DNA of 64,000 bases. Source: a virus. The notes beneath the pieces are model-generated. The model did not search any database, was not told where the DNA came from, and saw nothing but the letters and a program-made list of their open reading frames with translations. Positions 36,406-64,000 of the stretch are shown in pieces. A program made the translations under genes and the position numbers. The first letter of the stretch is position 1. Each line of letters begins with the position of its first letter. Where the stretch lies: positions 1 to 64,000 of the IMG/VR virus record IMGVR_UViG_3300032242_003075. One strand, 5' to 3'.

Positions 36406-36933
36406 ATGAAAATTCTAAAATTTGAAGAATATAGATTAGTCCTAGAGGCAGAGATTGACGCTACACCTGAACCTGTCGAGCCGTTACCTCAAACTTCCCC
36501 AACTCAACCTTCTCAGCCCAGCCCATCTCCTTTACCGGACTTCGGTGAACCATCAACCTTACCGCCAGATCCAAATGCACCCGTCGTTAATAATGCACCC
36601 GTTAACATTAAGCTGGTGATGTTGGACCCAGACCGTAAGTGGCATACGTCCTACACCGATGGAGGAGGAGTCAAACGTTATCCGGAGTATGAGATCGTGC
36701 CCGCTGACCTTGAAAAATGGATAACTGATTCAAACTTAACCGCTCAGCGAGATGCAATTATGCAAGCTATTCAGGGTAAAAAATCTATGGACAAAGAGAT
36801 TTTTACTAAGTTTAAGTCAGCCTTAGCCACCTCAAAGTTAGGTAAGAATCGAGGTGACCTTGACATTCAATACGATCCAAATAAGGAACCGTCAACCACC
36901 AATCTTGACATTATTTTCGTTAAGCCAGTCTGA
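36406..36933 (+). CDS. Late protein with capsid-targeting-like leader and Pro-rich linker (putative head-internal protein)
   Basis: TATAAATA at 36375-36382; N-terminus MKILKFEEYRLVLE. Confidence 0.6.
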   Translation: MKILKFEEYRLVLEAEIDATPEPVEPLPQTSPTQPSQPSPSPLPDFGEPSTLPPDPNAPVVNNAPVNIKLVMLDPDRKWHTSYTDGGGVKRYPEYEIVPADLEKWITDSNLTAQRDAIMQAIQGKKSMDKEIFTKFKSALATSKLGKNRGDLDIQYDPNKEPSTTNLDIIFVKPV

Positions 36934-37005
36934 TTTATTTTCCATTTTTTAAAAACCGAATGATGCAGTTTAGTAAAAGATTTTAACTAAAAAATCATTT
37001 GAACA

Positions 37006-38046
37006 ATGGAAGATCTATTTAACCTTAATCTAGACGATTTCTCCGGTAAATCGCAAAGCACTGCACGTAAAATTGACGAAAACATGTACAACCCCGGGCC
37101 GGACCAAGGACAAAATGGAATTTACAAATCTATAGTCCGTTTCATTCCGTGGGCACAAGACACTTCAAAAAGTCGTTACAAAAAGTACGCGGCTAAGCTA
37201 ACTAATCCTTTAACCAACGAAAGACTGTACGTTGATTGTCCTTCAACCACAGGATCATCATCGATTTTATGGTCCCTTGACCTTGAATTAAAAAGGTTAT
37301 CAACTGAGGAACCTGCAATAGTTGAAGAAATCAAAAAATACTTTAACAGGTACTACAACTACTACTCTTGCGTTTACATCAAAAAGGACCCACAATTTCC
37401 TAATTTAGAGGGACAAATCAAAGTGTACTCGTATGGATACACAATTGATAATTTAATCCAACAGGAGATCAATCCTGAATCGGAGCTTGTCGTAACTCAA
37501 AAGATAAATCCGTTCTCTCTTACTGAGGGTAAGGATTTCGTATTAGTCATTAAACGTAAGACTAAATCATGGAGAGATTTTAGCTCAAGTAAATTCATGA
37601 ACGAGGTTAGTCCACTAATCATTTCAACTCAAGGTAAAGAAATAGCTGCTTCAACCGAACCTAAGGTAATGGGATTCATCGGCGACTACCTTAAAAAGAA
37701 TTCTCCTGATATGAGCCCGTACTTCTTTAAGGAATGGACAGATCACGAATACGAAAAGGTTGCGGATTACATTAAAGCGATCATACCTTACAAACAGATC
37801 ATCGATAACCTAGTTTCAACGACCAAGGATGAACGTATGAAGAAACATTTTACTAACACTAAATCGATTTCTCGTACCGAAGCCCCAATGGGAGAAGCTA
37901 TGGAATTCTCTGCAGCTCCGACCAAAAGTTCAAGCGTTTCGGTTAGCTTAGATGATTTAGACATTGCTGAACCTAAGTCATCATCAGTTAAACCTAGCTC
38001 ACCCGCTAAGTATGCTGAGGTAGATGATCTTTTTGCAGATTTATAA
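37006..38046 (+). CDS. gp32: Single-stranded DNA-binding protein (gp32-like)
   Basis: IVRFIP, YIKKDPQFPNLEGQIKVYSYG, INPFSLTEGKDFVLVIK, acidic tail EVDDLFADL; promoter AAAC-N16-GTAAAAG at 36953-36979. Confidence 0.8.
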   Translation: MEDLFNLNLDDFSGKSQSTARKIDENMYNPGPDQGQNGIYKSIVRFIPWAQDTSKSRYKKYAAKLTNPLTNERLYVDCPSTTGSSSILWSLDLELKRLSTEEPAIVEEIKKYFNRYYNYYSCVYIKKDPQFPNLEGQIKVYSYGYTIDNLIQQEINPESELVVTQKINPFSLTEGKDFVLVIKRKTKSWRDFSSSKFMNEVSPLIISTQGKEIAASTEPKVMGFIGDYLKKNSPDMSPYFFKEWTDHEYEKVADYIKAIIPYKQIIDNLVSTTKDERMKKHFTNTKSISRTEAPMGEAMEFSAAPTKSSSVSVSLDDLDIAEPKSSSVKPSSPAKYAEVDDLFADL

Positions 38047-38062
38047 AAATACCTAACCTAAT

Positions 38063-38335
38063 ATGTCTGATCAAATCAACACAACTGAACCTACAGCTGA
38101 GTCTGCTCCAATAGCAACTCTACTTTCCTCAATTAGTTACTCAAATCTAACAGACTACGAGAATTTTCTAGCTAATTTAACAACCGAGCATGCAGTCCTA
38201 GTTTTAATTTCTGCAGCTAATCACAGTCAATCTAAGGGTATATTTAACCTTGACGAAGCTGAACTCATAGCTAAAGCCATTAAAAGACTTAGCTCAAAAC
38301 CGGATGACCAATCACCACAAGAACCAACCAATTAA
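38063..38335 (+). CDS. Hypothetical protein
   Basis: 90-aa ORF in the replication operon. Confidence 0.7.
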   Translation: MSDQINTTEPTAESAPIATLLSSISYSNLTDYENFLANLTTEHAVLVLISAANHSQSKGIFNLDEAELIAKAIKRLSSKPDDQSPQEPTN

Positions 38336-38345
38336 CTAAAAATAA

Positions 38346-39455
38346 ATGAACTTAATCATCGATGGAAATGCATTTTTAAATGTAGCTGTAAGTATCGTCA
38401 AAAACATTCTTCTAAATGATAAACGAGTTGGTGAAAAGTACTACGTGTCCGACATTCTAGAAGATGATAAGTTCATGTTAAAACAGGCTAGCAAAGATGC
38501 GTTCAGAAGTTTTTCAATAAATTATTTTGGAAGCATTCTTGCGCCCTTTAAGGATAATATCAGCTCAGTCTTTTTCGTATTTGACTCTAAGAGTTGGAGA
38601 AAGAAATACATTAAAGAGCATTTTGAAGCACATGGTGAAGGAGACTTTAGTTACAAGGGACAGCGTAAGTACGATGATAAAATCTATCTCTTTTTCGAGT
38701 ACTTTCAAAATGAGATACTAAACGGCATAGCTGAAGAATACGGAGTAGTCGTTAACCGAGTGCCTGGAGCTGAGGGAGACGATCTAATTGCTTACATTTG
38801 TGAAAATCTAAATGAAGACATTTGCATTTGGTCAGTTGATAAGGATCTTACTCAATTGCTAGAAAGCGATAAACGTAAGATCATCTTAATCATGCCAAAG
38901 CAGATGACCAAGTACAAAAAGATCTATACAACTGAAGATTTTGATATGACAGAAACATCAAACGTTGATCTATTTAACTTTGATATTTCAATGATCGATA
39001 ATTCCGCTGTTACTACCATCGTACATGATTTAACCCAAAAGGATTATAAGCATTTCACAGTTGATCCAACCCTTGACGTTGTGACAAAATTCTTAGCCGG
39101 TGATGATTCGGATAATATCCCAAGAATTCATCCAAAGATGACAGCTTCTAAAGTTGCTAGAGTAATCGAGCAAGTTAAGAATTCCAACGATTGGAAATCA
39201 ATACTTTCTAGAATTGACTCAGGTGATTCTAAGTTCATTGATCAATTACGTGATATAACATGTGAAATTCTAAAAATAAAGGAACCTGGTGAATCTCAAA
39301 CGATCCAGAATAACCTTAACCGCAATCGAACGCTAGTTAGACTAAATACAAAGGTTTTTCCTTCAGAAATTAGGGAATCTTTAATCGCAAACGTTGATCT
39401 AACTGTTCGAAGAAAGTTTAACTACTCTAAATTTAAAAAAAATTACAAACACTAA
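38346..39455 (+). CDS. rnh: RNase H / 5'-3' flap exonuclease (T4 rnh-like)
   Basis: LIIDGN, VFDSKSWR, YKGQR, EGDDLI, SVDKDLTQL, GDDSDNIP. Confidence 0.88.
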   Translation: MNLIIDGNAFLNVAVSIVKNILLNDKRVGEKYYVSDILEDDKFMLKQASKDAFRSFSINYFGSILAPFKDNISSVFFVFDSKSWRKKYIKEHFEAHGEGDFSYKGQRKYDDKIYLFFEYFQNEILNGIAEEYGVVVNRVPGAEGDDLIAYICENLNEDICIWSVDKDLTQLLESDKRKIILIMPKQMTKYKKIYTTEDFDMTETSNVDLFNFDISMIDNSAVTTIVHDLTQKDYKHFTVDPTLDVVTKFLAGDDSDNIPRIHPKMTASKVARVIEQVKNSNDWKSILSRIDSGDSKFIDQLRDITCEILKIKEPGESQTIQNNLNRNRTLVRLNTKVFPSEIRESLIANVDLTVRRKFNYSKFKKNYKH

Positions 39456-39787
39456 TGAGCACCGAAATACAAACCGGCTTTTTGCCACTATTCGAAAGAG
39501 TCCTAGTTCTACCGGATTCAGTTGAGACTAAAACTGAGACAGGAATCATTTTGCCGCCTGAGGCTCGAAAGAGACCTAACACCGGGACCGTAATTTCACT
39601 AGGTCATTTGGTTGCAACTAATTCAGGTTGCCCAGTAAAGGAAGGCAATCGCGTCCTCTATCAAAGATACTCCGGACTGGACGTTAAATGGGACAATAAA
39701 GATTATCATTTAATAATGGCTAACGATCTATTAGCAATTATTGATAAGGATCAAGAAACAACACTTGAGCTAAAGGAAAATGTTTAA
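39455..39787 (+). CDS. groS: Co-chaperonin GroES
   Basis: PLFERVLV, ETKTETGIILP mobile loop, GTVISLG, VKEGNRVLYQRYSG, DLLAII. Confidence 0.92.
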   Translation: MSTEIQTGFLPLFERVLVLPDSVETKTETGIILPPEARKRPNTGTVISLGHLVATNSGCPVKEGNRVLYQRYSGLDVKWDNKDYHLIMANDLLAIIDKDQETTLELKENV

Positions 39788-40385
39788 AAAGTTCGATCAG
39801 TTTCTTCTTGAAAGAAGGGGCGGAGATTTTAGAATATTTTGCGATCTAGACGGAGTCTTGGTCGATTTCATAAGAGGTTTTAAGGAAATCCCAGCCAATT
39901 CTAAGAGTCAATCACCCGCTGATTACGAAAAGGCTCACGGTAAGGGCTCAATATGGCCAATGATAAATGCTCTTGGAGAAAGCTTTTGGGCTAACCTTGA
40001 CTGGACTGAGGATGGCCGTGAATTATGGGACTATTTGAAACAATACGATCCGATAATTCTATCGTCACCAAGTAGGCATCCTGGATGTTTAACTGGTAAA
40101 GCTAAGTGGGTTCACCGTAATCTAGGAATTGATCAGGACCCTGTGCTTAATCCAACCGATTTCACTAAGGATACTAGACTAATTCTATCTAATCATAAAC
40201 ACGATTACGTTGAACCTTGTAAAAACCTGTTGGGTAAACAACCTATCCTAATAGACGATTTTGATAAGAAATTGAAGATGTGGACAGATTCAGGTGGAAT
40301 CGGCGTCCTACATAACGATTCAACTGACACAATTAGGGTAGTTGAGGATATTATGAGAGAGTCCAAGAGACCTGATTTCAATTAA
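39780..40385 (+). CDS. HAD-family 5'(3')-deoxyribonucleotidase with capsid-targeting-like leader
   Basis: IFCDLDGVLVDF (HAD motif I), ILSS, GKAKW, ILIDD; N-terminus MFKKFDQFLLE. Confidence 0.85.
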   Translation: MFKKFDQFLLERRGGDFRIFCDLDGVLVDFIRGFKEIPANSKSQSPADYEKAHGKGSIWPMINALGESFWANLDWTEDGRELWDYLKQYDPIILSSPSRHPGCLTGKAKWVHRNLGIDQDPVLNPTDFTKDTRLILSNHKHDYVEPCKNLLGKQPILIDDFDKKLKMWTDSGGIGVLHNDSTDTIRVVEDIMRESKRPDFN

Positions 40386-40434
40386 AAAAAAGGTTCTCGG
40401 ACCTAAACTAAGTGGTAGCCTTTAAAACTGGCAA

Positions 40435-40462
40435 AAAAAAGGACTCTATAGAGTCCTTTTTT
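40435..40462. terminator. Bidirectional terminator between convergent operons
   Basis: aaaaaa-ggactc-tata-gagtcc-tttttt. Confidence 0.85.
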
Positions 40463-40483
40463 GTTTTAATATGTCCATTATAA

Positions 40484-43400
40484 TTAGAACGATGGTGTAA
40501 AACCTGTTGATTGAGACGAAAGTTGACCGTTTGCTCTTGTGATTGTGATACGGTTGATGAACTTTTGAATTCCTCTTGGGAAGTTAACAATTATATCAAC
40601 CACACCAGCATTATTTTCAAGAACAGTTACTCCGTTATTTGAATCGTCAAATACAATATCGAACGTTGTGATACCGTTAGCATCTTGAACTGCAGTTAAG
40701 TAATTCTTGATAAGAGTCTTAACTCTTAACCTAGTGGTAGGATCGTTAAACTCAAAAAGATAGTTTAATAAGATTCGTTCAACGTCCCTTTCGATTGTAA
40801 CCAGGGCTTCTCTAACGTGAATGTTGTTAAGGGCTGACTTAACCGTTTGATAACCTGTGTTGTTTGAGAATATCATAACTCCAAAACCTCTACGCCTAAC
40901 GATTAAGTTAAAACCTGCAGGTTCCAAGAAATCTCTATCATCATTGGTTAAATCATATTCAACACCAGTAATTTCAGGTTCGGTGATAATTCCCCTTTTA
41001 CCTGCAACAATTGAGAAAGTATTTCCATTTGAGTACTTTTTCATGTACGTATTAGCAACATAAGTGGCTGGCGGAATTGACTTGTTTTTTCCGTTTTCAT
41101 AAATGATTAAGTTTGGCATGAAGTATCCAGCATAGGTTGAAATCGGAATTCCATTCTTATCTCCGCTAGCGAATCCGAAAGTAAAGCTTGGATTTGAAAG
41201 CAAGTTACCTCCGGTTGAAATGTATTCAGTTGACACCAAGTTAGTATTAATATCAATGAATCCTGGGTCGCTTGACCTTTCGTACTGGGCAAATGATGGA
41301 GAGTTTAGAATGGCAAAGGCTTTTCCATGATCCGCCGCTAGTTGCACTAAGTACTGCTTAGACGCGTGTGATATTTGACCCTCATACGAATCAATTATGT
41401 ATCTGAAATCTAATGTTTCGTTATCCGCTACTGTTGCTGCAATGTTCGTATTATCGTACATGTAGCTTAGAATATCGTCCTGTCTTTGAGACGTTCCGTT
41501 AGGGTACATTGCAGTTTCATCAACGATCATAGCTGGAACGTAAAATCCGTGCAAGTTAGTCACGAAATTCTTAATTCCTTTGTAGCACGTTAGCTTACTG
41601 TCAGTAAGATCAATTCCTCTAATGTTTGAATCCGTGTAACCGTCAACCTTGATCGTATATTGTAAAGTTGTTGCAGGTAAACTGTCCGGACCAATTGATG
41701 GAACTGATACTTTCACAGCAGAAATTGATTTAATCTTTAAGAACCTCTCTCTAATTACCGGATCACCATTAAGGTCAGTCGTTATTTTAGCTTTAACGTA
41801 TTGACCGGTTTTAAAGAAGTTATCAATATCGGCTCTGCTGTCTGAGTTATAAGTGAAACCTGGATTAGGTCTTTCCTTTTTAGCTGGATTACCGTATAGC
41901 GTTGGATCCAGCGTAACCACTAATTGGTTTGGCGAGGAATATTTAAAGTTGTAAGGTGAGCTAGTTATGAATCTAGTAGAATCAGTTAAATCGAATTCAT
42001 ACTTAAAAAGATTTTCAGTTGCTTGAATGATGTGTAAATAGTGGAATCCACCATCTGTTGTGTAGTAAGCGTCTGCTTGGTTAGTGAATGTTGCATCGCT
42101 ATAGACAAAGAATTCAATGTACTTAATTTGACCAGTAGACTGAATATTCACTACTCCATTAGTCGATATGTACTTATTGACTTGAGCAGAAGAGACTGGA
42201 TCAATCCAATTAATCTTGTCTCCAGTTTTTACGAAACCTGAGGCCCATGCCGAGTACAACTTACTTCCGTATGTTGCAACAATGTACTTATTACCTCCAC
42301 CGTTAACAATGTAGGTCTCACCATTAGCGTATGTTGAACTATAACTAGTAGAAGTTAGCTTAAAGTAATAATCAGAAGCAATGGGCTTTCTGTGACTTAA
42401 TACGTCAATTAGAGCGACCGCGTTCTGTAGTGAAGTACCATCATCAACTCCATAAGTAGCTAAGTCCATTTCATCAACTCCATAACCTACTAGATCAAGT
42501 CGTTGTTCTGATACTGGCTCAGTCGATGTACCGCTTGCGAATGTTGCATTAGTTAAGTCAATCATGTCGATCTTTTTATGATCTAATGATAAGAAAAGAC
42601 CACTTTGACTAAATGATCTATTGAATAAAGTATCGATTGATGCAACAGCTCCAGTTAAATCCGTGAAGTCTGGTATAATCGATCCGATTGTTCGGTTAAC
42701 CAAAGTTACTTCTCTCAGAGACGTAAAATTAGTTAATTGACCTAATTTTAAGCCGGTCTCGTCAAAATACTGGCGATATACTGGATCTTTTGCTAATCTT
42801 CTGTAATCTGTCCAATTTCCTTCAACTGCAATGACCTCAATGAAATAGTCGGCCATGTAGTCATCCGGGTGTAAGTATTCCGGTATTTCAACCTTTTCTC
42901 CAAGTAACTTGTAGTAATCCTTAACCGTAATGTCATAACCGTTTGTGTCAGCGATTCTTGCCCATACCGTAACTTGTTTCTTTGATAAGTTAACTAAACT
43001 AATCAATTTATTTGAATCACGAGTTACTGTTCCGGAAGCCGGAAACGTATCTCCAAGTTTAAGATTTTTGTACTTACTTAATTGATCAGCATCAGCAAAC
43101 CATAACTTTTGAGTGTTATAAAAGTGAGAAATGCTATCGTGGTAAGCAGAAGAGGTCCAAGTAGCATTATTTGACGCTGATTCTGTGTTAAACGTTGTGA
43201 AGTATGCAATGTCAGTATCTGTCACCGGCAAGATATTCAGTGCGTATACTGGGCCTTGTCTTAGAGCTACATCAATCGTTCTGTGAAAGTAGCTTCCGTT
43301 CTTTTCAAGCTTAGTATCAATTTCTCCATACACCGCTGATAAGGCCTTAGTATCATTGATGACCACGACTGAGTTAATTGGTCCTTTTTTGCTAGAGCCA

Positions 43401-43510
43401 ATTACCAACCGACCAGTTGAGTTAGGGAGGCTAAGGTTTATGCTCTCATCTATTTCAACTGTGTAGACACCGCTTGACTTGTATCTATTCAGATTTAATT
43501 TTTCTGCCAT
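40484..43510 (-). CDS. gp18: Contractile tail sheath protein
   Basis: SGVYTVEIDES, G-x-SKKGPIN; C-terminal SALNNIHVREALVTIE...YLFEFND..TR motif. Confidence 0.92.
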   Translation of the reverse strand: MAEKLNLNRYKSSGVYTVEIDESINLSLPNSTGRLVIGSSKKGPINSVVVINDTKALSAVYGEIDTKLEKNGSYFHRTIDVALRQGPVYALNILPVTDTDIAYFTTFNTESASNNATWTSSAYHDSISHFYNTQKLWFADADQLSKYKNLKLGDTFPASGTVTRDSNKLISLVNLSKKQVTVWARIADTNGYDITVKDYYKLLGEKVEIPEYLHPDDYMADYFIEVIAVEGNWTDYRRLAKDPVYRQYFDETGLKLGQLTNFTSLREVTLVNRTIGSIIPDFTDLTGAVASIDTLFNRSFSQSGLFLSLDHKKIDMIDLTNATFASGTSTEPVSEQRLDLVGYGVDEMDLATYGVDDGTSLQNAVALIDVLSHRKPIASDYYFKLTSTSYSSTYANGETYIVNGGGNKYIVATYGSKLYSAWASGFVKTGDKINWIDPVSSAQVNKYISTNGVVNIQSTGQIKYIEFFVYSDATFTNQADAYYTTDGGFHYLHIIQATENLFKYEFDLTDSTRFITSSPYNFKYSSPNQLVVTLDPTLYGNPAKKERPNPGFTYNSDSRADIDNFFKTGQYVKAKITTDLNGDPVIRERFLKIKSISAVKVSVPSIGPDSLPATTLQYTIKVDGYTDSNIRGIDLTDSKLTCYKGIKNFVTNLHGFYVPAMIVDETAMYPNGTSQRQDDILSYMYDNTNIAATVADNETLDFRYIIDSYEGQISHASKQYLVQLAADHGKAFAILNSPSFAQYERSSDPGFIDINTNLVSTEYISTGGNLLSNPSFTFGFASGDKNGIPISTYAGYFMPNLIIYENGKNKSIPPATYVANTYMKKYSNGNTFSIVAGKRGIITEPEITGVEYDLTNDDRDFLEPAGFNLIVRRRGFGVMIFSNNTGYQTVKSALNNIHVREALVTIERDVERILLNYLFEFNDPTTRLRVKTLIKNYLTAVQDANGITTFDIVFDDSNNGVTVLENNAGVVDIIVNFPRGIQKFINRITITRANGQLSSQSTGFTPSF

Positions 43511-43685
43511 CGAGTTTGCTTATTATTTTGAGTTATTTATTTATCAACTTAGCTCCAAAAAAGTGATTTTTGTATATGCTAAGTTAACCGTTAATGTTAT
43601 TTATTAGCACGAGACTCCTTAACTTAAACCCTTTTCTATTTTCCAGGTAAAAGAATGAGACTACTCATATAACATAAGCAACTTA

Positions 43686-44123: not shown

Positions 44124-44147
44124 TAATAACTCACATAGAACAAATAC

Positions 44148-45530: not shown

Positions 45531-45549
45531 AAAAATAAAAAACTCAATT

Positions 45550-46750: not shown

Positions 46751-46801
46751 AACAATTTCCGCATCTTATGTACAAGATGCTAAAGACAATTTTTAACACA
46801 C

Positions 46802-47692
46802 ATGGCAAAAACACCAATGGACGCATTCGCCAAGTTTAACGACTTGCTCGAAAAGAAAGTCAAGTCCAAAATAGACATCAAGGGATTTTCAGACATTGAT
46901 GAATACATCCCAACCGGTAATTACCTCTTAAATGCTCAAATGTCAGGCTCTTTGTTCGGAGGTTATCCGAACACTCGAAGCATTGGTATCGCCGGTGACT
47001 CAGGTTCAGGTAAAACGTTCTTGTGCTTGAATGCCGTACGTGAACTTCAAAAGCTAGGATACGTAGTTTTCTATATCGATACTGAGGGAGCTATTGACCG
47101 ATCTGACTATCTTAAATTTGGAGTCGATCTTGACAAGCTCACTTACCTTCGTATGGGTTACATTAGCGAGGTTAAATTTTTCATTAACGATTTCATTGAA
47201 ACTATGAAAGAAAATCCAGGTTTAAAAGTTGCAATATTTGTTGACTCGGTGGGGATGTTAGACACAGACAAGAGTAAAAGGGACATGGAGGCCGGTAAAA
47301 ACGCCGCTGACATGGGTCTTCGCTCAAAGGAGATGAGATCTCTTTTTAAATCGTTCACCCTTGAGCTTTCAAATTTACGAGTGCCATTTATTTTTACGAA
47401 TCACACTTACGCTTGCCTTTTAGGAGACCATAAAATTCTAACACATCAAGGTGAACTTATGATTTCTGAACTTAAAGTAGGACAATTAGTAGAAACTTTA
47501 GAAGGTTTAAAACCTATTGAAAACATATTTCAATACGATTGTCCAAAATTGATTGAAATAGTATTAGAGGATGACACAGTTATCAAGTGTACGCCTAATC
47601 ATAAGTTTTTAATCGGCGATGATTGGTCAAATGAAGATCATTGGGTAGAAGCAATGGATTTAATTGATGGAGCTGAAATAGTTTATAAATAA
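46802..47692 (+). CDS. uvsX: RecA/UvsX recombinase N-terminal part (204 aa) fused to split intein N-fragment (92 aa, from Cys codon 47414)
   Basis: Walker A GDSGSGKT, YIDTEGA, FVDSVG, DMGLR, TNHTYA, then CLLGDHKI...CTPNHKF...WVEAMDL; promoter AAAC-N16-GTACAAG at 46750-46776. Confidence 0.93.
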   Translation: MAKTPMDAFAKFNDLLEKKVKSKIDIKGFSDIDEYIPTGNYLLNAQMSGSLFGGYPNTRSIGIAGDSGSGKTFLCLNAVRELQKLGYVVFYIDTEGAIDRSDYLKFGVDLDKLTYLRMGYISEVKFFINDFIETMKENPGLKVAIFVDSVGMLDTDKSKRDMEAGKNAADMGLRSKEMRSLFKSFTLELSNLRVPFIFTNHTYACLLGDHKILTHQGELMISELKVGQLVETLEGLKPIENIFQYDCPKLIEIVLEDDTVIKCTPNHKFLIGDDWSNEDHWVEAMDLIDGAEIVYK

Positions 47693-47746
47693 AAAATTCT
47701 TGCATGTCTGTGATATATAAAAATAAAGGGACATGCAAGATTTTTT
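47691..47746 (+). promoter_or_regulatory. Hairpin covering the endonuclease start codon, with a late-promoter-like loop
   Basis: tcttgcatgtc (47698-47708) is the exact reverse complement of gacatgcaaga (47730-47740; ATG at 47733), extended by A6/T6; loop contains GATATATAA. Confidence 0.75.
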
Positions 47747-48785
47747 ACAACGAATTATAACATCATCAAATCTAGGATTAGCGTCTCTATCTAAGTCGAT
47801 TCGAAAAGATCGAGAATTTTATGATTTCTTAATTTCACAAACTTCATTTCTTTCAGAAAATGCAAACGTTCCATTTAGACTATATCATATTAGGCAAGGA
47901 TTAACTGAACAAGTTAGATGTAAACACTGCAAAAATCGATTGTTTAAAATTAGAATTGAATTCTGTAATAGGAAATGTGCAGCTATGTTTAATAGCAGAT
48001 TAATTGAAGTTCAGAAAAAGAGATCAAATTCATTAATCGAATCTTTCAGTAAAAAGACAGATTCTGAAAAACTTGAAACTCGTAAAAAACGTGAATCTAC
48101 TAATTTAGCGAAAGGCGGGCATGTTTCGAATCTTCATTCAGTTGAAGGAAAACAAAAAGTCAAAGAAACTTTCATTTCTAAATATGGATATGAAAACCCA
48201 AATACAAATTCATCAATTAAGGCAAAAATTTCAGCTGCAAATAAATTAACCTCAAATCATGCTTTAGTTGTACGTAAGAGCACCTGTTTAGAAAGATATG
48301 GTGTTGATAATGTTATGAAAACTCAAGAGGTTAAAGATAAAATAAAAGAGACTTGCTTTTCTAAATACGGCTCACAAAGCCACATGCAAAATGACAAGTT
48401 CTTAGAAAAATTTTTTAATGAATATCACAAAAGGTACAAATCTAAAGACTATGTATTACCTAGCGGAAAAACAGTTAAATTACTAGGATATGAACCTCAC
48501 GTATTGGACTATTTATTGACTAAATTTAATGAGTCTGACATAATTATCGGGTATTCAGCATACCGAAAAATAAAATGTAACTACATTCAAACTGGAAAAA
48601 CCCATCGATATATACCAGATTTCTATATTGAGTCAAAAAATTTAGTAATCGAAGTTAAATCAAACTATACGTACAATTTCGCTGATCCAAATAAGAGAAA
48701 GTCAGTACAAGAAAAAGGAATCAACTTTGTTTATGCAGTAGTTGATATAAAGAAAAAGAAAATATCATTTAATCGTTATGAATAA
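47733..48785 (+). mobile_element. Free-standing putative homing endonuclease (PD-(D/E)XK) between the split-intein halves
   Basis: CKHC...FCNRKC zinc motif, four T-x-x-x-K/R-Y-G-type repeats, C-terminal YIPDFYIESKNLVIEVKS; visibly more AT-rich than the flanks. Confidence 0.82.
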
Positions 48786-49476
48786 AATTAAAATTAAATC
48801 AGTAAAAGTCATTGAAAATTCTGAAAAAGTGTATGACATACAAGTAAAAGATGTGCATCACTACATCCTATCAAACAGGGTAGTTTCGCATAACTCAATG
48901 GATCAGTACACACCAAAGGGCATGTCCGGTGGTGGAGGTCCTGAATTCTCCGCATCAATCATTTTAATGTTGAGCAAGGGAACTCTTCGAGATGAAAGTA
49001 AGACGACTACTGGTATAATTGTAAGATCAAAAACGAAAAAGAACAGATTAGCCAAACCCATTGATATTGAGTTTCACATATCGTTTCATAAGGGTATGAA
49101 TCCTTACGTCGGGCTGGAACAATTTGTTAATTGGGAAAATTGCGGAATAGTTAGGGGTTCAAAATTAACCGAAAAGGAATTCAATAAGCTTAAACCTGAG
49201 GATCAGGCCAAATGTCATACGTTTGAAGTGAATGGGGAAACTTTCTACGTTAAACCGAGCATTCAAGCTAAGAACTTCATCGTTAGAGGAACCGGTGCGG
49301 AAGTCCCAGTAAGAGAATTTTTCTCAGCCAAGCTATTCACCGATGCAGTGCTAAAAGAATTGGACGAAAAGATAATTCAGCCAACCTTCAAATTCCCGGA
49401 AGGTCAAGAGGGCATAAATGTCATGGAAACTGATGAACTTGAGAACTTAACTGATACCTCAGACAATGATCTTTAA
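48778..49476 (+). CDS. uvsX: Split intein C-fragment (39 aa, ends HN at 48894) fused to RecA/UvsX C-terminal part (193 aa)
   Basis: KIKSVK...VYDIQVKDVHHYILSNRVVSHN|SMDQYTPKGMSGGGGPEFSASIILML, KKNR, GMNPYVGL. Confidence 0.93.
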   Translation: MNKIKIKSVKVIENSEKVYDIQVKDVHHYILSNRVVSHNSMDQYTPKGMSGGGGPEFSASIILMLSKGTLRDESKTTTGIIVRSKTKKNRLAKPIDIEFHISFHKGMNPYVGLEQFVNWENCGIVRGSKLTEKEFNKLKPEDQAKCHTFEVNGETFYVKPSIQAKNFIVRGTGAEVPVREFFSAKLFTDAVLKELDEKIIQPTFKFPEGQEGINVMETDELENLTDTSDNDL

Positions 49477-51337: not shown

Positions 51338-51350
51338 TAAACAAACACCA

Positions 51351-55270: not shown

Positions 55271-55320
55271 GTAACCTTTTTTGATTTTAGTAGTAAAAGA
55301 TAGAAAATCTTTACTCAACT

Positions 55321-56211: not shown

Positions 56212-56217
56212 CTAATC

Positions 56218-56676: not shown

Positions 56677-57074
56677 TAGATTCAACAGATCGCCGACTTG
56701 AAATAGTCTTTGTTAGAGATCAGCGACAATTTATTCAAGTTTTTAACAAAAAACAAAAATGCGATTATTTACTTAACGTGAATAAAATAATTAGGGAAAA
56801 ATTTGAGCAAGAGATCATTGTCCCCAATAAGATTCAGTCCTTTTTAATTAATTATGAAATTAAAAAACTAATTGACAAAGCGGTAAACGTTAGGAATCGA
56901 AAGTACAATCGAATAATTTACGTAAATTCAGGATTAAGCGTTAGTAGCATAAACAATGCAATAAAATTCTTAACTCTTGCGTATGATGAGATAACGTTTG
57001 TCCCGAAGCTAATTGATACCGACTCTGATTTTAATGAACTTGCCGGAGTTGAAATCATAAAAAAAGGGCTTTAG
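56673..57074 (+). CDS. Hypothetical protein
   Basis: 133-aa ORF overlapping the deaminase stop (ATGA). Confidence 0.7.
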   Translation: MIDSTDRRLEIVFVRDQRQFIQVFNKKQKCDYLLNVNKIIREKFEQEIIVPNKIQSFLINYEIKKLIDKAVNVRNRKYNRIIYVNSGLSVSSINNAIKFLTLAYDEITFVPKLIDTDSDFNELAGVEIIKKGL

Positions 57075-57085
57075 AGCCCTTTTTT
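57061..57085. terminator. Bidirectional terminator
   Basis: aaaaa-gggct-ttag-agccc-tttttt between convergent operons. Confidence 0.85.
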
Positions 57086-57102
57086 ATTAGATATTAGTTT
57101 AA

Positions 57103-57492
57103 TTATGCTCGATTTATCTTAACTTGTCCAGAATAAACTTGAGAATCTTCAGGTTTATTAACATCGTCTATTAGTACAATATCAAATTCACCAGCTTTAT
57201 CCTTTCTAGTCGAGATCATTACTGCAGAATCTTTTTTTGAATTCGAAGTCATTGGCTCAATTACCTTAAAATTTCTAACCTCCTTGCTATCTTCGCTTGG
57301 TTCTCCCAATGCGGTAAATTCAAAGGACTTTCCGTCAGCAGTCGTGACTGAGATTTTGTAATTGTTGTTAGTTGGCTCAGCCGGTTTAATCGTTGTAGTT
57401 TCGACGGACTTCTGATCAATGTCTCCTGTTCCAGGCATTGCTACTGCATCCTCCTCAGATAACCATTGTTCGTATAGTTTAATCGCTCTCAT
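57103..57492 (-). CDS. Putative head-internal protein
   Basis: N-terminus MRAIKLYEQWLSEE; late operon. Confidence 0.55.
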   Translation of the reverse strand: MRAIKLYEQWLSEEDAVAMPGTGDIDQKSVETTTIKPAEPTNNNYKISVTTADGKSFEFTALGEPSEDSKEVRNFKVIEPMTSNSKKDSAVMISTRKDKAGEFDIVLIDDVNKPEDSQVYSGQVKINRA

Positions 57493-57500
57493 TAAGATGA

Positions 57501-58139
57501 TTATTCTTCGTCCTCAGGATTTTCAGATTCTTCAGAATCTTCTTCTTCTTCCTCAGCTGGAGCTTCGCTCATTCTCTTAACTGCTGTACATAGCAGTTCA
57601 GCAACTTCTTCTCTATCAATTTCCATCTTTTCTGCTATGTCAGATATAAGATCTTCGATTTCTTCTCCGAACTCATCCATTAAGTTTTCAAGTTGTTCTG
57701 CATCAACCTCAACGTCTTCCGGCGATCCTTCCATGGGCTCATCCGTTAATGGTTCATCGGTTTCAGCTTCAGCGAACATGTTGAATCCTTCACTCTCGTT
57801 TAGAAATTCTTCGAAAGTTCTGATTCTTGCGGCTTCTTCAACAGCGTCAACTGTTGCAATTGTTGGTTTTGCGTACATTGGATCAAATGGTTTTTTCTTT
57901 GACGTTCTTGAAATGAGGTCACGAGTTACCGCTTTCCAAGTTGGGTCGTAATTATGATTGAACTTTCCACCTTCAAAGTCAGCATTTCTGTCAACTACTC
58001 GTTGGTATGGTTCTAGTGATTTTCTTTTTGATTTATCGAAAGGTTCAGCTGAATTAGGTCCGCCGAATCCAGGTTTCTTTAGGTCAGAATACTTATCCAT
58101 TGAAGGATTGTCCCTGCGTTTTATGTTAAACATGTCCAT
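57501..58139 (-). CDS. Putative prohead core/scaffold-like protein (basic N-half, very acidic C-half)
   Basis: Internal RIRTFEEFLNESE motif followed by an E/D-rich helical tail. Confidence 0.55.
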   Translation of the reverse strand: MDMFNIKRRDNPSMDKYSDLKKPGFGGPNSAEPFDKSKRKSLEPYQRVVDRNADFEGGKFNHNYDPTWKAVTRDLISRTSKKKPFDPMYAKPTIATVDAVEEAARIRTFEEFLNESEGFNMFAEAETDEPLTDEPMEGSPEDVEVDAEQLENLMDEFGEEIEDLISDIAEKMEIDREEVAELLCTAVKRMSEAPAEEEEEDSEESENPEDEE

Positions 58140-58158
58140 GATTTAGGATTTAATTATT

Positions 58159-58758
58159 TTATTGACCGATTCGAGTCTCTGTGTAAGAATCTGCAGAGAA
58201 CTGAACCGAAAGTTTAAGTATAGTTTCGTTAGTGTAATCCAATTCTGTCTCGGTCATTTTCTCAGGACCTATGAAGACTGGTGAGAACACAAAATCTCTA
58301 AAGATTGCACCTGCTCGGTTGAATTGAGTTACTTGAATTGAAGCTGGGTTGTTTGCCGGTCCAGCGTACGCTGACTTTAAACCTTGTCTACCGGTTAACG
58401 GGTTATAAATTAAATCAGCCCATGCTCTTAGTGCATTGTAGATGTAGTTATCGTTATTGTCGTTTAAGTTAACCTCAAAGTCAATCTTGAACTGGTGATA
58501 TGTTTGAGCAGGCTTAGCTGGAGCGTATATCCTGTCAGAGAATTTATAGTGTTGAACAATTACTCCTGAACCTGAACCTGCGTATTCCGGAAGCTTATCC
58601 ACCTTCAATACGTGTTCCAACATTAGATTGTTTCCAAATCCGATTTTTCCTGCTACTGCCGGCGGTGGTGTGATGATGACTTCAAACTGATTTAAGTAAA
58701 TCGGTTCGTATCTTCCTGGACCTGCAGTTGAATTTTTAAAATGTGGTAGACCTGCCAT
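58159..58758 (-). CDS. gp19: Tail tube protein (gp19-like)
   Basis: EPIYLNQFEVIITPP, LRAWADLIYNPLTG, QFNRAG, ELDY, VQFSADSY; 199 aa; late promoter at 58779-58785. Confidence 0.75.
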   Translation of the reverse strand: MAGLPHFKNSTAGPGRYEPIYLNQFEVIITPPPAVAGKIGFGNNLMLEHVLKVDKLPEYAGSGSGVIVQHYKFSDRIYAPAKPAQTYHQFKIDFEVNLNDNNDNYIYNALRAWADLIYNPLTGRQGLKSAYAGPANNPASIQVTQFNRAGAIFRDFVFSPVFIGPEKMTETELDYTNETILKLSVQFSADSYTETRIGQ

Positions 58759-58777
58759 CGTATGTCTTAGTTTTTAG

Positions 58778-59827
58778 TTATTTATTAGTGATGGTCTCAC
58801 TTTGTTTACTTGTTTTACGAGTCCTTAAACCTGACTCCCTTGCCGCAATCTCTGCCTCCAGTTTATTCTGAAGAGCTTTAATTTCAGGGGTCGTTTTATT
58901 GCCTAGCGTAATTCCAGTAGCCTTAATAACATCGGCAAAATCAATCTCAGGTTTCTCCTTTGAATAGACCGAATTTTGATCTGGCGTAAAGCTTAGTTCA
59001 ACCGAAGGTAATACCTGCACAAGTAAATTTCCTCCCAACCTGCCGCTAGCTTCGTCCGACTTAACATTAAAGTCTTCGAACTTAAACTTATGGGAAACTC
59101 CGTTAACGATTGCCTCTGCCCAAATCAGTTTGGTGTTATCAACACTTTCTCCGGAGATTACCTTAGTTAGGTTCTGTGAAACTTTATAAAGAAAGCTAAT
59201 TCCGGATGAGTACGAGCCCTTTTCTAATTGACCGTCAATGAACCTCAGCTTTTCTCCGTGCACTATTACTGTGTATTCGAAATTACCCTTGGGTGATTCT
59301 TGATTAGGCGCTTGAGTTGTAGTGCTAGTCACTTCCTCGGTTCCTTCTGGTCCACTCAATAGCTTTGGACTATTATCTATATTAGCTTTAGGTTTAGCGT
59401 CACGAATCACATCTACTTCACCTCCTCTAGCTGGAAAAGCGATTAACGACCGACCTATGTCCGAGCCTTTGACAAGCTCTCTCTTACCGGTGTTCTGTAA
59501 TGCTCTTGACGGCTGATCGCCTGATGCTAATTGTTTTGGCTGATCCGGTCCAGGTGGCAATGCTGCCTCCTTTAGGATTCCTAGCTTAGCGTCAATTATC
59601 GAATTAATCTCCATTAGTAGACCGTTTAACTGTTCCCCGGAGGTGTACTTAACGTACTTCGGAGAAGCATAGGCCGAGGTGTAAATTAGGTCAGGGTAAA
59701 CATCAGTCTCATAGATTTCGATTAATTGATCGTTTTGATTCCATTTCGGCTGTTTACCCCTGCCTAAACTCTTCCAAGTTATCTTGAATCCTATTATTGA
59801 TTCAGCTATTACGCCCTGTACTGCCAA
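58778..59827 (-). CDS. Hypothetical late protein
   Basis: 349-aa ORF in the head/tail operon. Confidence 0.7.
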   Translation of the reverse strand: MAVQGVIAESIIGFKITWKSLGRGKQPKWNQNDQLIEIYETDVYPDLIYTSAYASPKYVKYTSGEQLNGLLMEINSIIDAKLGILKEAALPPGPDQPKQLASGDQPSRALQNTGKRELVKGSDIGRSLIAFPARGGEVDVIRDAKPKANIDNSPKLLSGPEGTEEVTSTTTQAPNQESPKGNFEYTVIVHGEKLRFIDGQLEKGSYSSGISFLYKVSQNLTKVISGESVDNTKLIWAEAIVNGVSHKFKFEDFNVKSDEASGRLGGNLLVQVLPSVELSFTPDQNSVYSKEKPEIDFADVIKATGITLGNKTTPEIKALQNKLEAEIAARESGLRTRKTSKQSETITNK

Positions 59828-59830
59828 TTA

Positions 59831-60133
59831 TTATCCTATTTCTTTTTCACCCTGGAATTCCTTTCCACGATTTGATTTTTTCTTGCTAGGATCGACAGGC
59901 TTGTAGTTGGCCCAGATCTCGTTATACACTCTGCAAGAAGCTCCCATGAAGTTAACTATTCCGACGTATTTTTTACGGTCATCGCCCTTCATTTTTGAAA
60001 TTTTCTTACCTATTGTACGAGCATCGTCCAGGTCCAATTCTTCATCGTCCGACTTTCCGACCAAATCCTTTATTGAGCTTTCGTTGGTGACGAAGTCCTT
60101 AAAAGATCTAATCCTGCTATTATTTTGATCCAT
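59831..60133 (-). CDS. Putative head-internal protein
   Basis: N-terminal SRIRSFKDFVTNESS. Confidence 0.55.
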   Translation of the reverse strand: MDQNNSRIRSFKDFVTNESSIKDLVGKSDDEELDLDDARTIGKKISKMKGDDRKKYVGIVNFMGASCRVYNEIWANYKPVDPSKKKSNRGKEFQGEKEIG

Positions 60134-60147
60134 TAGTTAGAGTTTAA

Positions 60148-60516
60148 TTATTTCCTTGGCAATTTAGCCATCTTAGAGTCAACTTGCCTGTTGGAAGTTT
60201 TACCCTTAATTAGGATATTAGCCATCTTAGGGTCAACTTGCTTATTGGAAGCAGTTCCCCTACCCTTAGGTAAATCAGCAGTATTTGTCTTTACCGACTT
60301 TGTGATGCTCGAGCCCTTTCCTTTTGGAAGCTGTGCCATTTCAGGCTTTACTGATTTAGCGATGTTTTTACCTTTACCTTTAGGTAGCTCAGACACTTTA
60401 TTATCAACCTGTTTGGTGATTTTTGAACCTTTAGCCGGAGCTCCTTTTGAAAGTTCTTGGTCGATTGATTTCTTTTCTAAAAGAAATTCTTGGTAGCTTA
60501 ATACTGACTTAATCAT
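60148..60516 (-). CDS. Lys-rich repeat protein, putative DNA-binding head-internal protein
   Basis: Leader MIKSVLSYQEFLLE, then about five 18-19-aa repeats LPKGKG...K.V....A; late promoter at 60560-60566. Confidence 0.65.
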   Translation of the reverse strand: MIKSVLSYQEFLLEKKSIDQELSKGAPAKGSKITKQVDNKVSELPKGKGKNIAKSVKPEMAQLPKGKGSSITKSVKTNTADLPKGRGTASNKQVDPKMANILIKGKTSNRQVDSKMAKLPRK

Positions 60517-60597
60517 TCTGTTTTATTTTTTTGTTGCGTTATGCTTTATCTATGAATGTTATTTATTTAAGCACACGTCGTTAAAATATGAGGCGAT

Positions 60598-62307
60598 TTA
60601 TAAATTATCGGCTGACCATTCAAATTTCCAATTACCGCATTCAAATGTTCGGTATAGACCCCTTTCGTGCATTATCTGAAGTTCAGTTTTAGTTGGGTCC
60701 TCGCCCTGTAGAACAAGCTTGTGTTTCATGAAGTTATTCCTGGGCATCCTGATTCCGTTGACCACCCACGAATACGAATTTGATCTACCCAATAGCTTAA
60801 ATCCAAGTTTATGATACACGGTACAGGTTGGATCCGGTGAAATGTCTACGTCGCAAAAGCTTATCACCCGGGCAGGTCCTATTTCTCGTACGAATCTTGA
60901 GAATAACTTTGAGGCTCCTCCTATTACTGACGTGTTCAACTTTGTGCAAAGTCGTTCAAGCTCCCAAATTTCGGACTTTCTGACGAATGTCATGACCTCA
61001 ACTAATTCTGACTCGTAGAACAGGCCGTATGCAATCGTACATCTCTTTCCTCCCTTTAAATGATTTTCCTCGCAAAAATCCTTTGCCTTTTTCGAATCCA
61101 TTCTATCGATGGTGCATTTTCTTGCGAATATTCTCGATTTGGACATCCCCACAAAGTTATTAATCATGCTCTCAACTATCGGTCTTTTGGTTGACCAGTC
61201 ATCTTCCCAGACATGATGTAGTTTTATTCCATGTGAATGAGCTAGCATCGTTTTATTAATGTGGTATTGAGAAGGTTTTTCCATTTCACTATGCCAGTAA
61301 GTTCCGTTAAATTCAATCGCAATCATTTCTTTCGGTAAAAAAATGTCCAATTCTGTTCCCTTTAAAACGTATTTTCTATTTAATAGAACGTTAGGGCCGT
61401 ATACTGATATGACGTAATCAGCTAAACTTTTTTCAGCCTTTGAGAATCTTCTGTTTGATATGTCTGACTTATTACAGAAAGGGCAAGGATCAGCGCCTCT
61501 TCTTAGCTTAACGTTAACGCATGAATTTGCAAGCACGAACGAGTTACTGCATTTATTGCACAGTAATGAATAGTACTGAGTTGTAGTATCGTGATCAACT
61601 AATTCAATCTGGTAGGACTTTAACTTGGCTGAGGCAGCGATTGCTAGCTTGATCTTATTTGATTTTCCAACCTTACTTGAAATTTCTGGGCTTTTAGCAG
61701 CATTTTCAAAACCGTACCTACTTAAATTAGTATCTTTGGTTTTTTTAATACCAAGCATGTTTAACGTTCCCTGAGAATCAATCGTTGACTGCTGTTGTTT
61801 TTTTAATATATCATAATTCTGTAAAGCATGTTTAGCTCCATACCTCTCAACCATGGTCTTTTCCATAGATTCTCTCGGTTTTCCGGACCAATTGTGCTCA
61901 GAACCGTATCGTTCCATCATGGTTTTTCGGTAATTATCCCTAGTTGATTTCAGCTTGGTTGGATGATCAACTCCGTGCTTAAGCATGGTGCTTTCCCTTA
62001 AAGTTAGTAGGCGATTACTATCAATGCATGATTTATCCCCACATGTCTCTAAGTAGCCTTTAGAATATGTATTGAATTTTCTAAGTTTACCGCATTCGCA
62101 TCTAACTCCATTTTCTGAGTTGACGATGGACCATAATATCTGCTGTGGATTGTCAGGTACTTGAAACTTATTGATTAAAAAATCTTTAAACTCTTTGTCC
62201 TTTCTTAATATGGTCAATTCGCTTTGAATTCTAACGTTTGCCATTTTTTTCTCTAATAGTTTCTCCCTGAGTGAATCTAGTTTTTCTTGATTAGTTAGAG
62301 GTTCCAT
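60598..62307 (-). mobile_element. Free-standing putative homing endonuclease (Hef-like) downstream of the capsid gene
   Basis: Zinc motifs, T-x-x-x-R-Y-G repeats, ELDIFLP...IAIEFNGTYWHS nuclease, then IFARKC...ELERLC...VIGGASKLF domain; own TATAAATA at 62335-62342. Confidence 0.78.
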
Positions 62308-62367
62308 GTATCCAATGATTAGGTATTTGTAATCTATTTATACAAGACAGGTCAGACATAGGTTCAT

Positions 62368-62396
62368 AAAAAAAGCAGGCATTTCTGCCTGCTTTT
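62368..62396 (-). terminator. Terminator after the major capsid gene
   Basis: gcaggca-ttt c-tgcctgc stem flanked by an A tract (T tract on the minus strand). Confidence 0.85.
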
Positions 62397-62423
62397 ACTT
62401 ATTACTAATATAGTATATTAATC

Positions 62424-64000
62424 TTAGTAAGATGATGCTGGTCTAGTTGATCCAGTTAATACACCTAAACCGTTTACAGTTAAAGTGATGTATTGAGTTT
62501 CTGGGTGCCATCCTGCTTCTGTGATTGCATAACGTGATTTCATACCAATTTTTGGAGAGAATGTACCTTCTGCAATTGTTTGAAGAGATTCAGCCATAAT
62601 ATACGGCATGAATTTAACACCTGGTTCTTCATCTGCACCTTTACGGCCGATGTGGATTCTGTTATCTCCGAATTTTAAGTTTGGATCCACATACACAGTT
62701 AAACCGTGTACTTTACCTGCTGGATATAATTGTCCTGCAGTTGATGGAAGATCATTATTAAACGGAGAGAATGTGTAACCTGCTACGTCAGCAAGAGCTG
62801 AAGCAACACGACCGTTAGTTACGATGTAAGTACCGGCTCCGAAACGACCTCTGTGATAAATCAAGTTAGCCATTTCAAGAATTTTAGTTACAACTCGACG
62901 TTGTAGAGTTGAGATGTTCTCAAAACCAGTTGAACCTACTGTAAGGTCTAAGTTAGTAATGTCAGAACCTTCAACTCCTGCGATTTCAGTGTTATGAGCT
63001 GTTCCTAATTGGAATACTCTGTCTACTAATTTCTTGTTGATCGATTGAGCAAGTTCGTTAACCGCTACGTTTTCTAACATTGAGATTACGTCGAAGTTCC
63101 AAACTCTGTTAAGATCTTGGATTTGCTCAACTGTTGCAGAGATAGCAACTTGGTCTCCTTTTGCTTCGATGAACTTGGTGAACATACGAAGACCCATTTG
63201 ACGGAATTTTGAAGTTTCTGCAACTGCTCTGGTCATTCCATCCATTTGACTTCCGTTAGCTCCTAAGTAAGGACCGTTAAAGTCAGTAGTTGAGTAATCA
63301 GCATCTGATACTGAAGTGAAACCTGAAATGTGGTTTTCTAAAGCAGATACTAATTCAACTTTGTTATCAGCTGTACGGAAAGTTACTACCGAAGTACCTG
63401 AAACGTCAGTGTTATTAGCTGGTTGAATATCAACGTCTGCTGCGAAGTAATCAGCAAGAGTACCGCTATCATGAGATAAGATAACCTTGAAGATTGGAGT
63501 TCCGTCAACACGTGATTTACCAACGTATTGCATAACTAAGTCAGTGTTGGCTTCGTTTACACCGTAGTTGTTACCTTCGGTGAACGGTAGAGTAGCTGAG
63601 CTAAACTTAGCACCATTTGCGACACCGTTTACTGTAGAACCAGCAGCGTTTTCTAACAAACCTGTGATCTTGATTAAATACGGTTCGTATTGTTTGTCAA
63701 TGTTACCACCTTGGTACACGTAATCCAAGTAAGGTAAGAAACCTACTGGAGAATCCATAGGAACTACACCAACTAGGTCGAAACCAATAGTTTTAGCAGC
63801 CACTTGGATTGCTACAGGTAAAAGGCTTGGGAATTTATCACCAGAACCTGATACTGAAGCACCGTATCCGTTTTTAATACCTGCTGTGAACGGAGTCATT
63901 GAGCTAGTAGGAGAAGTGATTGCTCCCATTGCGCTAATAGAACCCGGTTGTTGTAAGAATAAACCTGGAGCTACACCAGTGTTTGATTCATTGATTGCAC
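62424..64000 (-). CDS. gp23: Major capsid protein (gp23-like), 5' end outside the window
   Basis: DLVGVVPMDSPVG, EQIQDL, ELAQSINK, VYVDP, FMPYI, TFSPKIGMKSRYA. The frame stays open upstream of 63929 to the window edge (...AINESNTGVAPGLFLQQPGSISAMG). Confidence 0.93.
   Translation of the reverse strand, partial: AINESNTGVAPGLFLQQPGSISAMGAITSPTSSMTPFTAGIKNGYGASVSGSGDKFPSLLPVAIQVAAKTIGFDLVGVVPMDSPVGFLPYLDYVYQGGNIDKQYEPYLIKITGLLENAAGSTVNGVANGAKFSSATLPFTEGNNYGVNEANTDLVMQYVGKSRVDGTPIFKVILSHDSGTLADYFAADVDIQPANNTDVSGTSVVTFRTADNKVELVSALENHISGFTSVSDADYSTTDFNGPYLGANGSQMDGMTRAVAETSKFRQMGLRMFTKFIEAKGDQVAISATVEQIQDLNRVWNFDVISMLENVAVNELAQSINKKLVDRVFQLGTAHNTEIAGVEGSDITNLDLTVGSTGFENISTLQRRVVTKILEMANLIYHRGRFGAGTYIVTNGRVASALADVAGYTFSPFNNDLPSTAGQLYPAGKVHGLTVYVDPNLKFGDNRIHIGRKGADEEPGVKFMPYIMAESLQTIAEGTFSPKIGMKSRYAITEAGWHPETQYITLTVNGLGVLTGSTRPASSY

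Follow-up and report, generated by a model that had tools for sequence, protein, structure and literature searches.

The DNA considered here is a window of 64,000 nt (the whole stretch that was analysed; positions 1 to 64,000 of IMG/VR record IMGVR_UViG_3300032242_003075), which is the start of one 89,882-bp virus contig and shares its numbering. Our subject is a short peptide, built around two aromatic residues and a Glu, that heads a series of otherwise dissimilar proteins and resembles the capsid targeting sequence (CTS) of phage T4. A sequence-only reading of the window had listed six such strings and taken them for an address label that loads proteins into the phage head; on re-translation, all six are found where that reading had placed them. 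Gene calls throughout are greedy longest open reading frames (ORFs) made for this analysis.

The genome has a G+C content of about 38%, and the contig encodes tail sheath, tail tube and replication genes besides a gp23-type major capsid protein. The latter is only 25-28% identical to T4 gp23. Among deposited phages its closest match is in an uncultured huge phage (40.6% identity), followed by the Lak phages (about 35%). Relatives are many in IMG/VR, with capsid identities of 62-90% and contigs of up to 271 kb. Two of them, G001 and G003, are near-complete, one at 270,136 bp (CheckV 100%) and the other at 253,137 bp (CheckV 94%). Judged by the divergence of the capsid protein and the sizes of the relatives, the contig comes from a jumbo phage on a distant branch of the T4 superfamily and covers about a third of its genome.

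Leaders in the Window

Two of the six strings are on the plus strand. Gene A (ORF 36406-36933, 175 residues) opens with MKILKFEEYRLVLE (36406..36447), which scores 18.5 bits with the matrix described below, of which it is a training instance. The protein has a Pro-rich linker and an acidic mature part, and finds no match in Pfam or PHROG. Gene B (39780-40385) opens with MFKKFDQFLLE (39780..39812) and encodes a 5'-3' deoxyribonucleotidase (phrog_2643, E = 2.9e-20). Since the match to the nucleotidase family profile begins only at residue 18, the leader is an add-on to the enzyme. The pattern F-x-x-F-[VIL]-x-E is kept in 16 of 16 IMG/VR orthologues of B, while the remaining leader residues vary.

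The other four strings are on the minus strand. Gene C (57103-57492, 129 residues) begins with MRAIKLYEQWLSE (57454..57492). Its leader is conserved across 10 distinct orthologues; the 20 or so residues that follow are hypervariable. The tag of gene D (57501-58139, 212 residues) is internal: RIRTFEEFLNE, followed by Ser, occupies residues 105-115 (57795..57827), behind a basic N-terminal half and ahead of an acidic tail, and is conserved in 32 distinct orthologues. The tail is like that of T4 gp67, a resemblance only. Gene E (59831-60133) encodes a basic protein of 100 residues with the leader MDQNNSRIRSFKDFVTNE, followed by Ser (60080..60133), in which SRIRSFKDFVTNE is preceded by MDQNN; both aromatics and the Glu are retained in 30 distinct orthologues. 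Gene F (60148-60516, 122 residues) has the leader MIKSVLSYQEFLLE, followed by Lys (60475..60516), on a protein of Lys-rich basic repeats (pI 10.5). Its core, YQEF-L-x-E, equals the YQEF-I-x-E of T4.

The Motif Is Concentrated at N-Termini

The consensus written for these strings by the sequence-only reading, basic-x-[FY]-x-[EQD]-[FWY]-x(1-4)-E, proved too strict. As a regular expression it recovers four of its own six instances (39780, 57492, 60133 and the internal one), misses those at 36406 and 60516, and matches 4 of 77 N-termini. It was dropped in favour of an eight-column scoring matrix, trained on the six instances only and used at a threshold of at least 8 bits. The genes beyond 64 kb (29 N-termini) served as the held-out set.

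The expectation that the motif is more frequent at N-termini than chance allows was borne out. Matches were found at 8 of the 29 held-out N-termini and in 5 of 1738 internal blocks, a difference with a Fisher p of 2e-12; the five include the internal instance already listed. Among the eight, the match at 67982, in a baseplate-region protein, is probably false, and that at 89509 belongs to the family, though its start was mis-called. The concentration is also seen in 80 related loci, where the 8-bit threshold is reached by 69 of 1364 N-termini vs. 173 of 29,013 internal blocks. Each of the near-complete relatives has 27 tagged ORFs, out of 318 and 316, respectively (shuffle means 2.1 and 2.2).

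A biased composition of N-termini, such as AT-rich early codons yielding K, I, F, N and E, could in principle generate look-alike leaders, as could the spread of a single paralogous family. The N-termini are indeed rich in K, I and F, in a genome of about 38% G+C. When residues 2-22 of the 71 non-training genes were shuffled 1000 times, preserving composition, the mean number of matches was 0.61 and the maximum 5, as opposed to the 8 observed. The same matrix also shows no enrichment in phiKZ, PTm1 and S-PM2. As to paralogy, an all-against-all BLASTP of 16 carriers finds them mutually unrelated, the exception being three paralogues with LRV repeats (genes M, N and P, below), which alone share similarity beyond the leader; a match of D to J is borderline (E = 0.002). 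We regard both forms of this explanation as extremely improbable.

The DNA of the leaders has a median nucleotide identity of 40% and is identical only in the M/N pair. Given this low identity, and since the four key positions are kept while their neighbours vary, selection, as read from these comparisons, acts on the leader peptide.

The number of N-terminal matches can be compared across seven genomes with the same matrix: 13 of 79 on this contig (shuffle mean 0.7), 6 of 261 in T4 (1.9), 5 of 381 in KVP40 (2.0), 5 of 187 in HTVC008M (1.3), 4 of 304 in PTm1 (2.5), 3 of 354 in phiKZ (1.6), and 0 of 236 in S-PM2 (1.5). N-terminal enrichment is thus lacking in the last three. By this comparison the tag is present outside the T-evens and is used far more in the lineage studied here.

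Tagged Genes Beyond the Window

The rest of the contig adds ten carriers, all on the minus strand. Gene G (73851-74348) has the weak leader MIRAATFKGFVINES, and gene O (74929-75429) an internal tag. Genes H (75441-75728), I (75730-76701) and J (76708-77130) begin with MKYLKTYQQYDVSE, MMSHVLKFTQFNES and MQLIKTFENFMNHHEES, respectively. Gene K (77139-78695, 518 residues) has a weaker leader and, in addition, a C-terminal motif. Gene L (86152-86958) begins with MLTFSEYLKIKHGKKTVNES. Genes M (87601-89055) and N (89056-89508) share one leader, MKYVKLFESWDQES, a third copy of which heads gene P (89509 to the contig end, where it is incomplete).

Little of this set is recognisable by homology. M, N and P are LRV/HEAT repeat proteins. 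The C-terminal domain of O is DUF5824 (E = 3.3e-15) and that of I matches phrog_7595 (E = 1.1e-11), both domains being widespread in phages. For the DUF5824 part of O there is a further match, to the C-terminal end of a PHROG family with the annotation cytidyltransferase. The remaining carriers of the contig have no match in Pfam or PHROG, and sequence searches of the PDB with K, I, L and A gave none below E = 0.05. K has 112 homologues, all unnamed, and no recognisable enzyme domain. F-x-x-F-[LIV]-x-E lies within the last 25 residues in 53 of 102 full-length K homologues, which indicates that the motif can also occupy the C-terminus.

The relatives are more informative about cargo. Among their tagged proteins (52 of 54 scanned) are two NUDIX proteins, a VanY/M15 peptidase, CHAP and peptidoglycan-binding domains, and a helicase; a 2H/Acb1-like match is slightly under the Pfam cut-off. 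The cell-wall hydrolase domains, the NUDIX proteins and the 2H/Acb1-like enzyme are plausible as ejected proteins.

A second motif, [DEN]-x-L-x-x-[ML]-G-[LF] (e.g., DRLVRMGL), clusters in tagged proteins. The contig has 5 matches in 4 of 13 tagged genes vs. 1 match, in gene G, among 64 untagged ones. G001 has 5 matches in tagged genes vs. 1 in 291 untagged genes, and the corresponding numbers in G003 are 2 and 3.

Comparison with the T4 Tag

That T4 has such a tag, and that foreign proteins can be packaged with it, is well established. The tag alone suffices to package a foreign protein, and packaging of internal protein IPIII needs only its first 10 residues, of which residues 4 and 7 serve targeting, and 8 and 10 processing (PMC9026906). 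The prohead protease gp21 cuts after L/I-X-E (PMC9026906). The CTS has been considered a possibly general route for loading varied proteins in T4-like phages, CTS-like sequences being found in T2, T4D and T6 (PMC9026906).

MKTYQEFIAE, which the sequence-only reading had ascribed to IPII and IPIII, is confirmed on both in the T4 record. The matrix, trained on the window, selects the internal proteins of T4: the top four of its 261 ORFs are ipIII and ipII (13.0 bits), and ipI and gp61.1 (12.8 bits), the names being those of the record's annotation and the ORFs greedy. Gp61.1 is an uncharacterised protein of 54 residues (NC_000866, 18966-19130) that begins with MKTFKEFIKE. It may be an unrecognised packaged T4 protein.

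The likeness extends to the individual positions. What is conserved in the lineage, namely aromatic, x, x, aromatic, L/I/V, x, Glu, corresponds to the Y, F, I and E determinants of MKTYQEFIAE. In 14 of the contig's genes the aromatic-x-x-aromatic unit begins between residues 4 and 11. In the contig and the two relatives together, the first Glu stands 3 residues past the second aromatic in 31 of 55 leaders, P3 (two places ahead of the Glu) is L, I or V in 37 of 55, and P2 is most often Asn (18 of 55). Cleavage would be expected behind LVLE in gene A, LLE in B and F, LSE in C and VTNE in E.

As a system, the closest parallel is provided by IPI, IPII and IPIII of T4. In both cases a short N-terminal tag heads unrelated proteins, with aromatics three apart and then [LI]-x-Glu (here, for example, SYQEFLLE), and in both there is an S77-family protease together with a gp23-type capsid protein. 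The differences are of scale and arrangement. About 27 proteins per genome are tagged here as opposed to 4 to 6 matches in T4; some of the tags here are internal or C-terminal; the protease is fused to a scaffold whose repeats bear the motif; and the present tags are known from sequence only. A second parallel is Alt, the head ADP-ribosyltransferase of T4, which has gp21-trimmed propeptides at both termini (PMC9026906), as K has motifs at both ends. The N-terminus of Alt, in contrast, is not of the internal-protein type (matrix rank 85 of 261), and K has no recognisable enzyme domain.

Protease, Scaffold and Capsid Protein

Directly upstream of the capsid gene lies a gene (64166-66148, minus strand) for a predicted fusion of 660 residues, in which an S77 protease, about residues 1-270, forms the N-terminal part and is followed by a scaffold. 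The protease matches Peptidase_S77 at 40.9 bits (cut-off 27), outscoring S80 (29.6 bits), and phrog_207 at E = 1.5e-37. Its catalytic His and Ser align with H85 and S140 of T4 gp21, the catalytic residues of that enzyme (PMC12991175). The best BLASTP match of the fusion to the T4 scaffold protein gp22 is weak and short (E = 0.008 over 29 residues).

Residues 297-436 of the fusion (64841-65260, minus strand) are ten tandem repeats of 14 residues. Eight of the ten contain Y-x-x-Y-[LIV]-[AG]-E and agree in this four-position pattern with the leaders and with YQEFIAE of T4. The proteome, of 28,452 residues, has 19 instances of a strict form of it, [FYW]-x-x-[FYW]-[LIVM]-x-E (shuffle mean 3.7, maximum 10): 8 in the scaffold, 4 in leaders and 2 in K. 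The scaffold repeats share one ancestral unit and have to be counted as one event. Full-length homologues of the fusion (654-677 residues, 44-78% identity) have kept 5-10 copies. No protein with at least two copies of the strict motif is found in T4, KVP40, S-PM2, HTVC008M or phiKZ, and PTm1 has a single unrelated ORF with two. What is new here, as predicted from the gene sequence, is a protease fused to a scaffold whose 14-residue repeats bear the leader motif. The parts of the literature on capsid targeting sequences available to us describe neither such scaffold repeats nor such tags for uncultured or distant T4-like jumbo phages.

The S77 protease of PTm1 is also fused to a repeat-bearing, scaffold-like tail (217778-219547, 589 residues), the repeats being W-I-x-x-x-F-T-K-x-L-S-E. 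A co-variation test in that phage was negative: no family of N-termini matches its repeats and the T4-type tag is not enriched, which neither supports nor refutes imitation of the scaffold by the tag.

The major capsid gene (62424-64145, minus strand; 62424..64000 in the window) is of the gp23 type (Pfam Gp23, E = 2.9e-42). Its start, at 64145, is past the window. The AINE/S string that had been pointed out near its N-terminus is present, at residues 50-54 (63984..63998, minus strand). Across 56 distinct N-termini this Glu never changes (56 of 56), and P3 is always I, L, V or M (56 of 56). The protein has no further Glu from residue 54 to about 140. Being the last Glu before the conserved core, and invariant, the Glu of AINE marks the best candidate for cleavage, and AINE/S is likely to be the maturation site of the capsid protein. 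T4 gp23 also has a string that fits the motif, FGSFLTE, and is cleaved there, at FGSFLTE/A. The next gene downstream of the capsid gene is that of a homing endonuclease (60598-62307, minus strand, 569 residues, phrog_3339, E = 1.3e-99), in the same relative place as segD in T4.

Targeting or Merely Cleavage?

The recurrence of one pattern in leaders, scaffold repeats and gp23 raises an alternative for the function of the leader. It may do no more than show the prohead protease, by a longer recognition signal, where to cut; as a propeptide it would hold proteins inactive until late infection and then be removed, and it would play no part in loading. Ar-x-x-Ar-[LIV]-x-E (Ar, aromatic) is found in FGSFLTE/A of gp23 and in the scaffold repeats, both of them protease substrates, and gp21 also cleaves non-virion proteins in the cell, according to a preprint (PMC12991175). 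The experiments in T4 speak against this view, for there the aromatics matter for targeting and not for processing (PMC9026906). Moreover, the specificity of gp21 needs just L/I-X-E (PMC9026906, PMC12991175), so that cleavage alone gives no reason for the aromatic pair to be conserved. Cleavage at the C-terminal tag of K, too, would free merely 3 or 4 residues. We find a pure protease signal improbable.

A different partner for the leader has also to be weighed. It could be a docking helix for phage-encoded chaperones, or a membrane or localisation signal. The phage has its own GroEL (26297-27865, phrog_5725, E = 1e-152) and GroES (39455-39787, E = 1.8e-17), and a protein with a J-domain-like start (66213-67112) adjoins the protease gene. 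We know of no chaperone signal of such form. The motif is the T4 tag residue for residue and selects the T4 internal proteins, and docking to a chaperone would leave both the Glu in cleavage register and the S77 protease unexplained. For a Sec-type signal the leaders are charged and too short. We consider such partners very unlikely, more so than a cleavage signal.

The explanation we favour, and hold to be likely, is that the leaders are T4-type capsid-targeting propeptides; from the comparisons above we infer both packaging and cleavage. Each tagged protein would be made with a short tag, mostly N-terminal, which is most often Ar-x-x-Ar-[LIV]-x-E, with a hydrophobic residue two places ahead of the Glu. 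The aromatic pair would dock the protein on the assembling prohead core, here the protease-scaffold fusion, as the analogy with T4 suggests. The S77 protease would then cleave behind the Glu, and the mature protein, released inside the head, would either scaffold or exit with the DNA at infection. Each of these steps, namely docking, cleavage, packaging and ejection, is inferred. The loading label proposed by the sequence-only reading gains support on several sides: the N-terminal enrichment, the detection of ipI, ipII and ipIII of T4, the agreement with the T4 determinants, the unrelatedness of the carriers and the protease next to the capsid gene. The tagged proteins are probably packed into the virion.

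Several observations weigh against this explanation. In 12 of 67 matches no Glu is found within 8 residues, and in some leaders P3 is not hydrophobic, as in WDQE of M and N. AINE/S cannot be aligned with LTE/A of T4. NES, as a special cleavage signature, had to be given up: the contig has 13 NES tripeptides, 6 after leaders, 1 at the capsid site and 1 after the protease domain, vs. 9.4 expected, and thus no overall enrichment. The tagged genes of the contig are not enriched in late-promoter boxes (2 of 13 vs. 14 of 64), and gene B is in an early-looking operon with no late box upstream. Finally, the lineage is uncultured, as is its closest deposited match by capsid protein.

What the tag would bind is a separate question. 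The binding partner of the CTS in T4 itself has been called "mysterious" in a 2023 review (PMC9958956). One idea is that the tag is a free-standing copy of a building block of the scaffold: the cargo would dock as a repeat-like helix, and one and the same cut would then take the scaffold apart and release the cargo. We offer this tentatively, as possible but doubtful. The shared motif could equally mean that leaders, repeats and the gp23 site are simply good protease substrates.

Other Systems

Propeptides that end in a Glu are also known from the giant phages phiKZ, 201phi2-1 and SPN3US, in which a gp21-related protease cleaves many of the inner-head and ejection proteins behind that residue (PMC5694885, PMC9026906). 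The phiKZ-type giant phages are also comparable in genome size (relatives here, 253-270 kb). Their sites, however, are S/A-x-E or A-x-E, mostly behind propeptides of more than 100 residues (PMC5694885), whereas P3 here is L, I or V and the tags have 10-20 residues. A phiKZ-type system, with an S80 protease and a small P3 in S/A/G-x-E sites, was set aside: P3 is L, I or V in 37 of 55, and S77 outscores S80.

A functional parallel is found in encapsulins, where a short terminal peptide sends unrelated enzymes inside a shell of HK97 fold. Encapsulin cargo-loading peptides attach to the shell protein itself, with no scaffold involved, and no protease takes them off.

Evidence for Late Expression

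A gp55-like late sigma factor is encoded at 24228..24647 (minus strand; phrog_234, E = 1.2e-17), and its presence favours late transcription of the T4 type for the tagged genes, as predicted from the gene content. A perfect copy of TATAAATA, the T4-type late-promoter box, lies at 36375..36382 (plus strand), 23 nt upstream of gene A, a gene placed among replication genes. Similar boxes, [TGA]ATAAATA, are found 16-27 nt upstream of structural genes. In the two relatives, a late-promoter-like box is present within 70 nt in 13 of 27 and 13 of 27 tagged genes vs. 46 of 291 and 43 of 289 untagged ones (p about 1e-4).

Two further features of the window may be recorded here. An endonuclease-like ORF (47733-48785) lies between what are seemingly the two halves of a split RecA/UvsX-like gene (46802-47692 and 48778-49476). 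An end-open ORF at 3-2174 (minus strand) has long Thr-rich linkers and two near-identical modules of about 110 residues (LYCQQF...CEFCFRFSH); it is probably a tail-fibre or surface protein.

Implications

The sequence-only reading had suggested that the injected proteome could be listed from sequence. That goes too far. A candidate list can be drawn up, and it is incomplete: the matrix misses Alt of T4, flags gp61.1, and accepts the 12 matches (of 67) that have no Glu. The proteins that would accompany the DNA include a nucleotidase, NUDIX proteins, cell-wall hydrolases and a 2H/Acb1-like enzyme, and they are candidates for first-strike takeover or anti-defence functions.

In closing, we prefer the view that a head-loading tag known from T4 would be conserved far past the T-evens, into phages whose capsid protein is about one-quarter identical, and would be expanded to about 8% of genes in an abundant environmental lineage of jumbo phages. 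The motif-bearing repeats of the scaffold point to a possible binding partner of the tag. If the tag were a copy of the scaffold unit, this would explain why many docking repeats go together with about 27 tagged proteins per genome, candidate anti-defence enzymes included. The lineage would also offer a wider choice of tags for engineering the packaging of proteins in phage heads.

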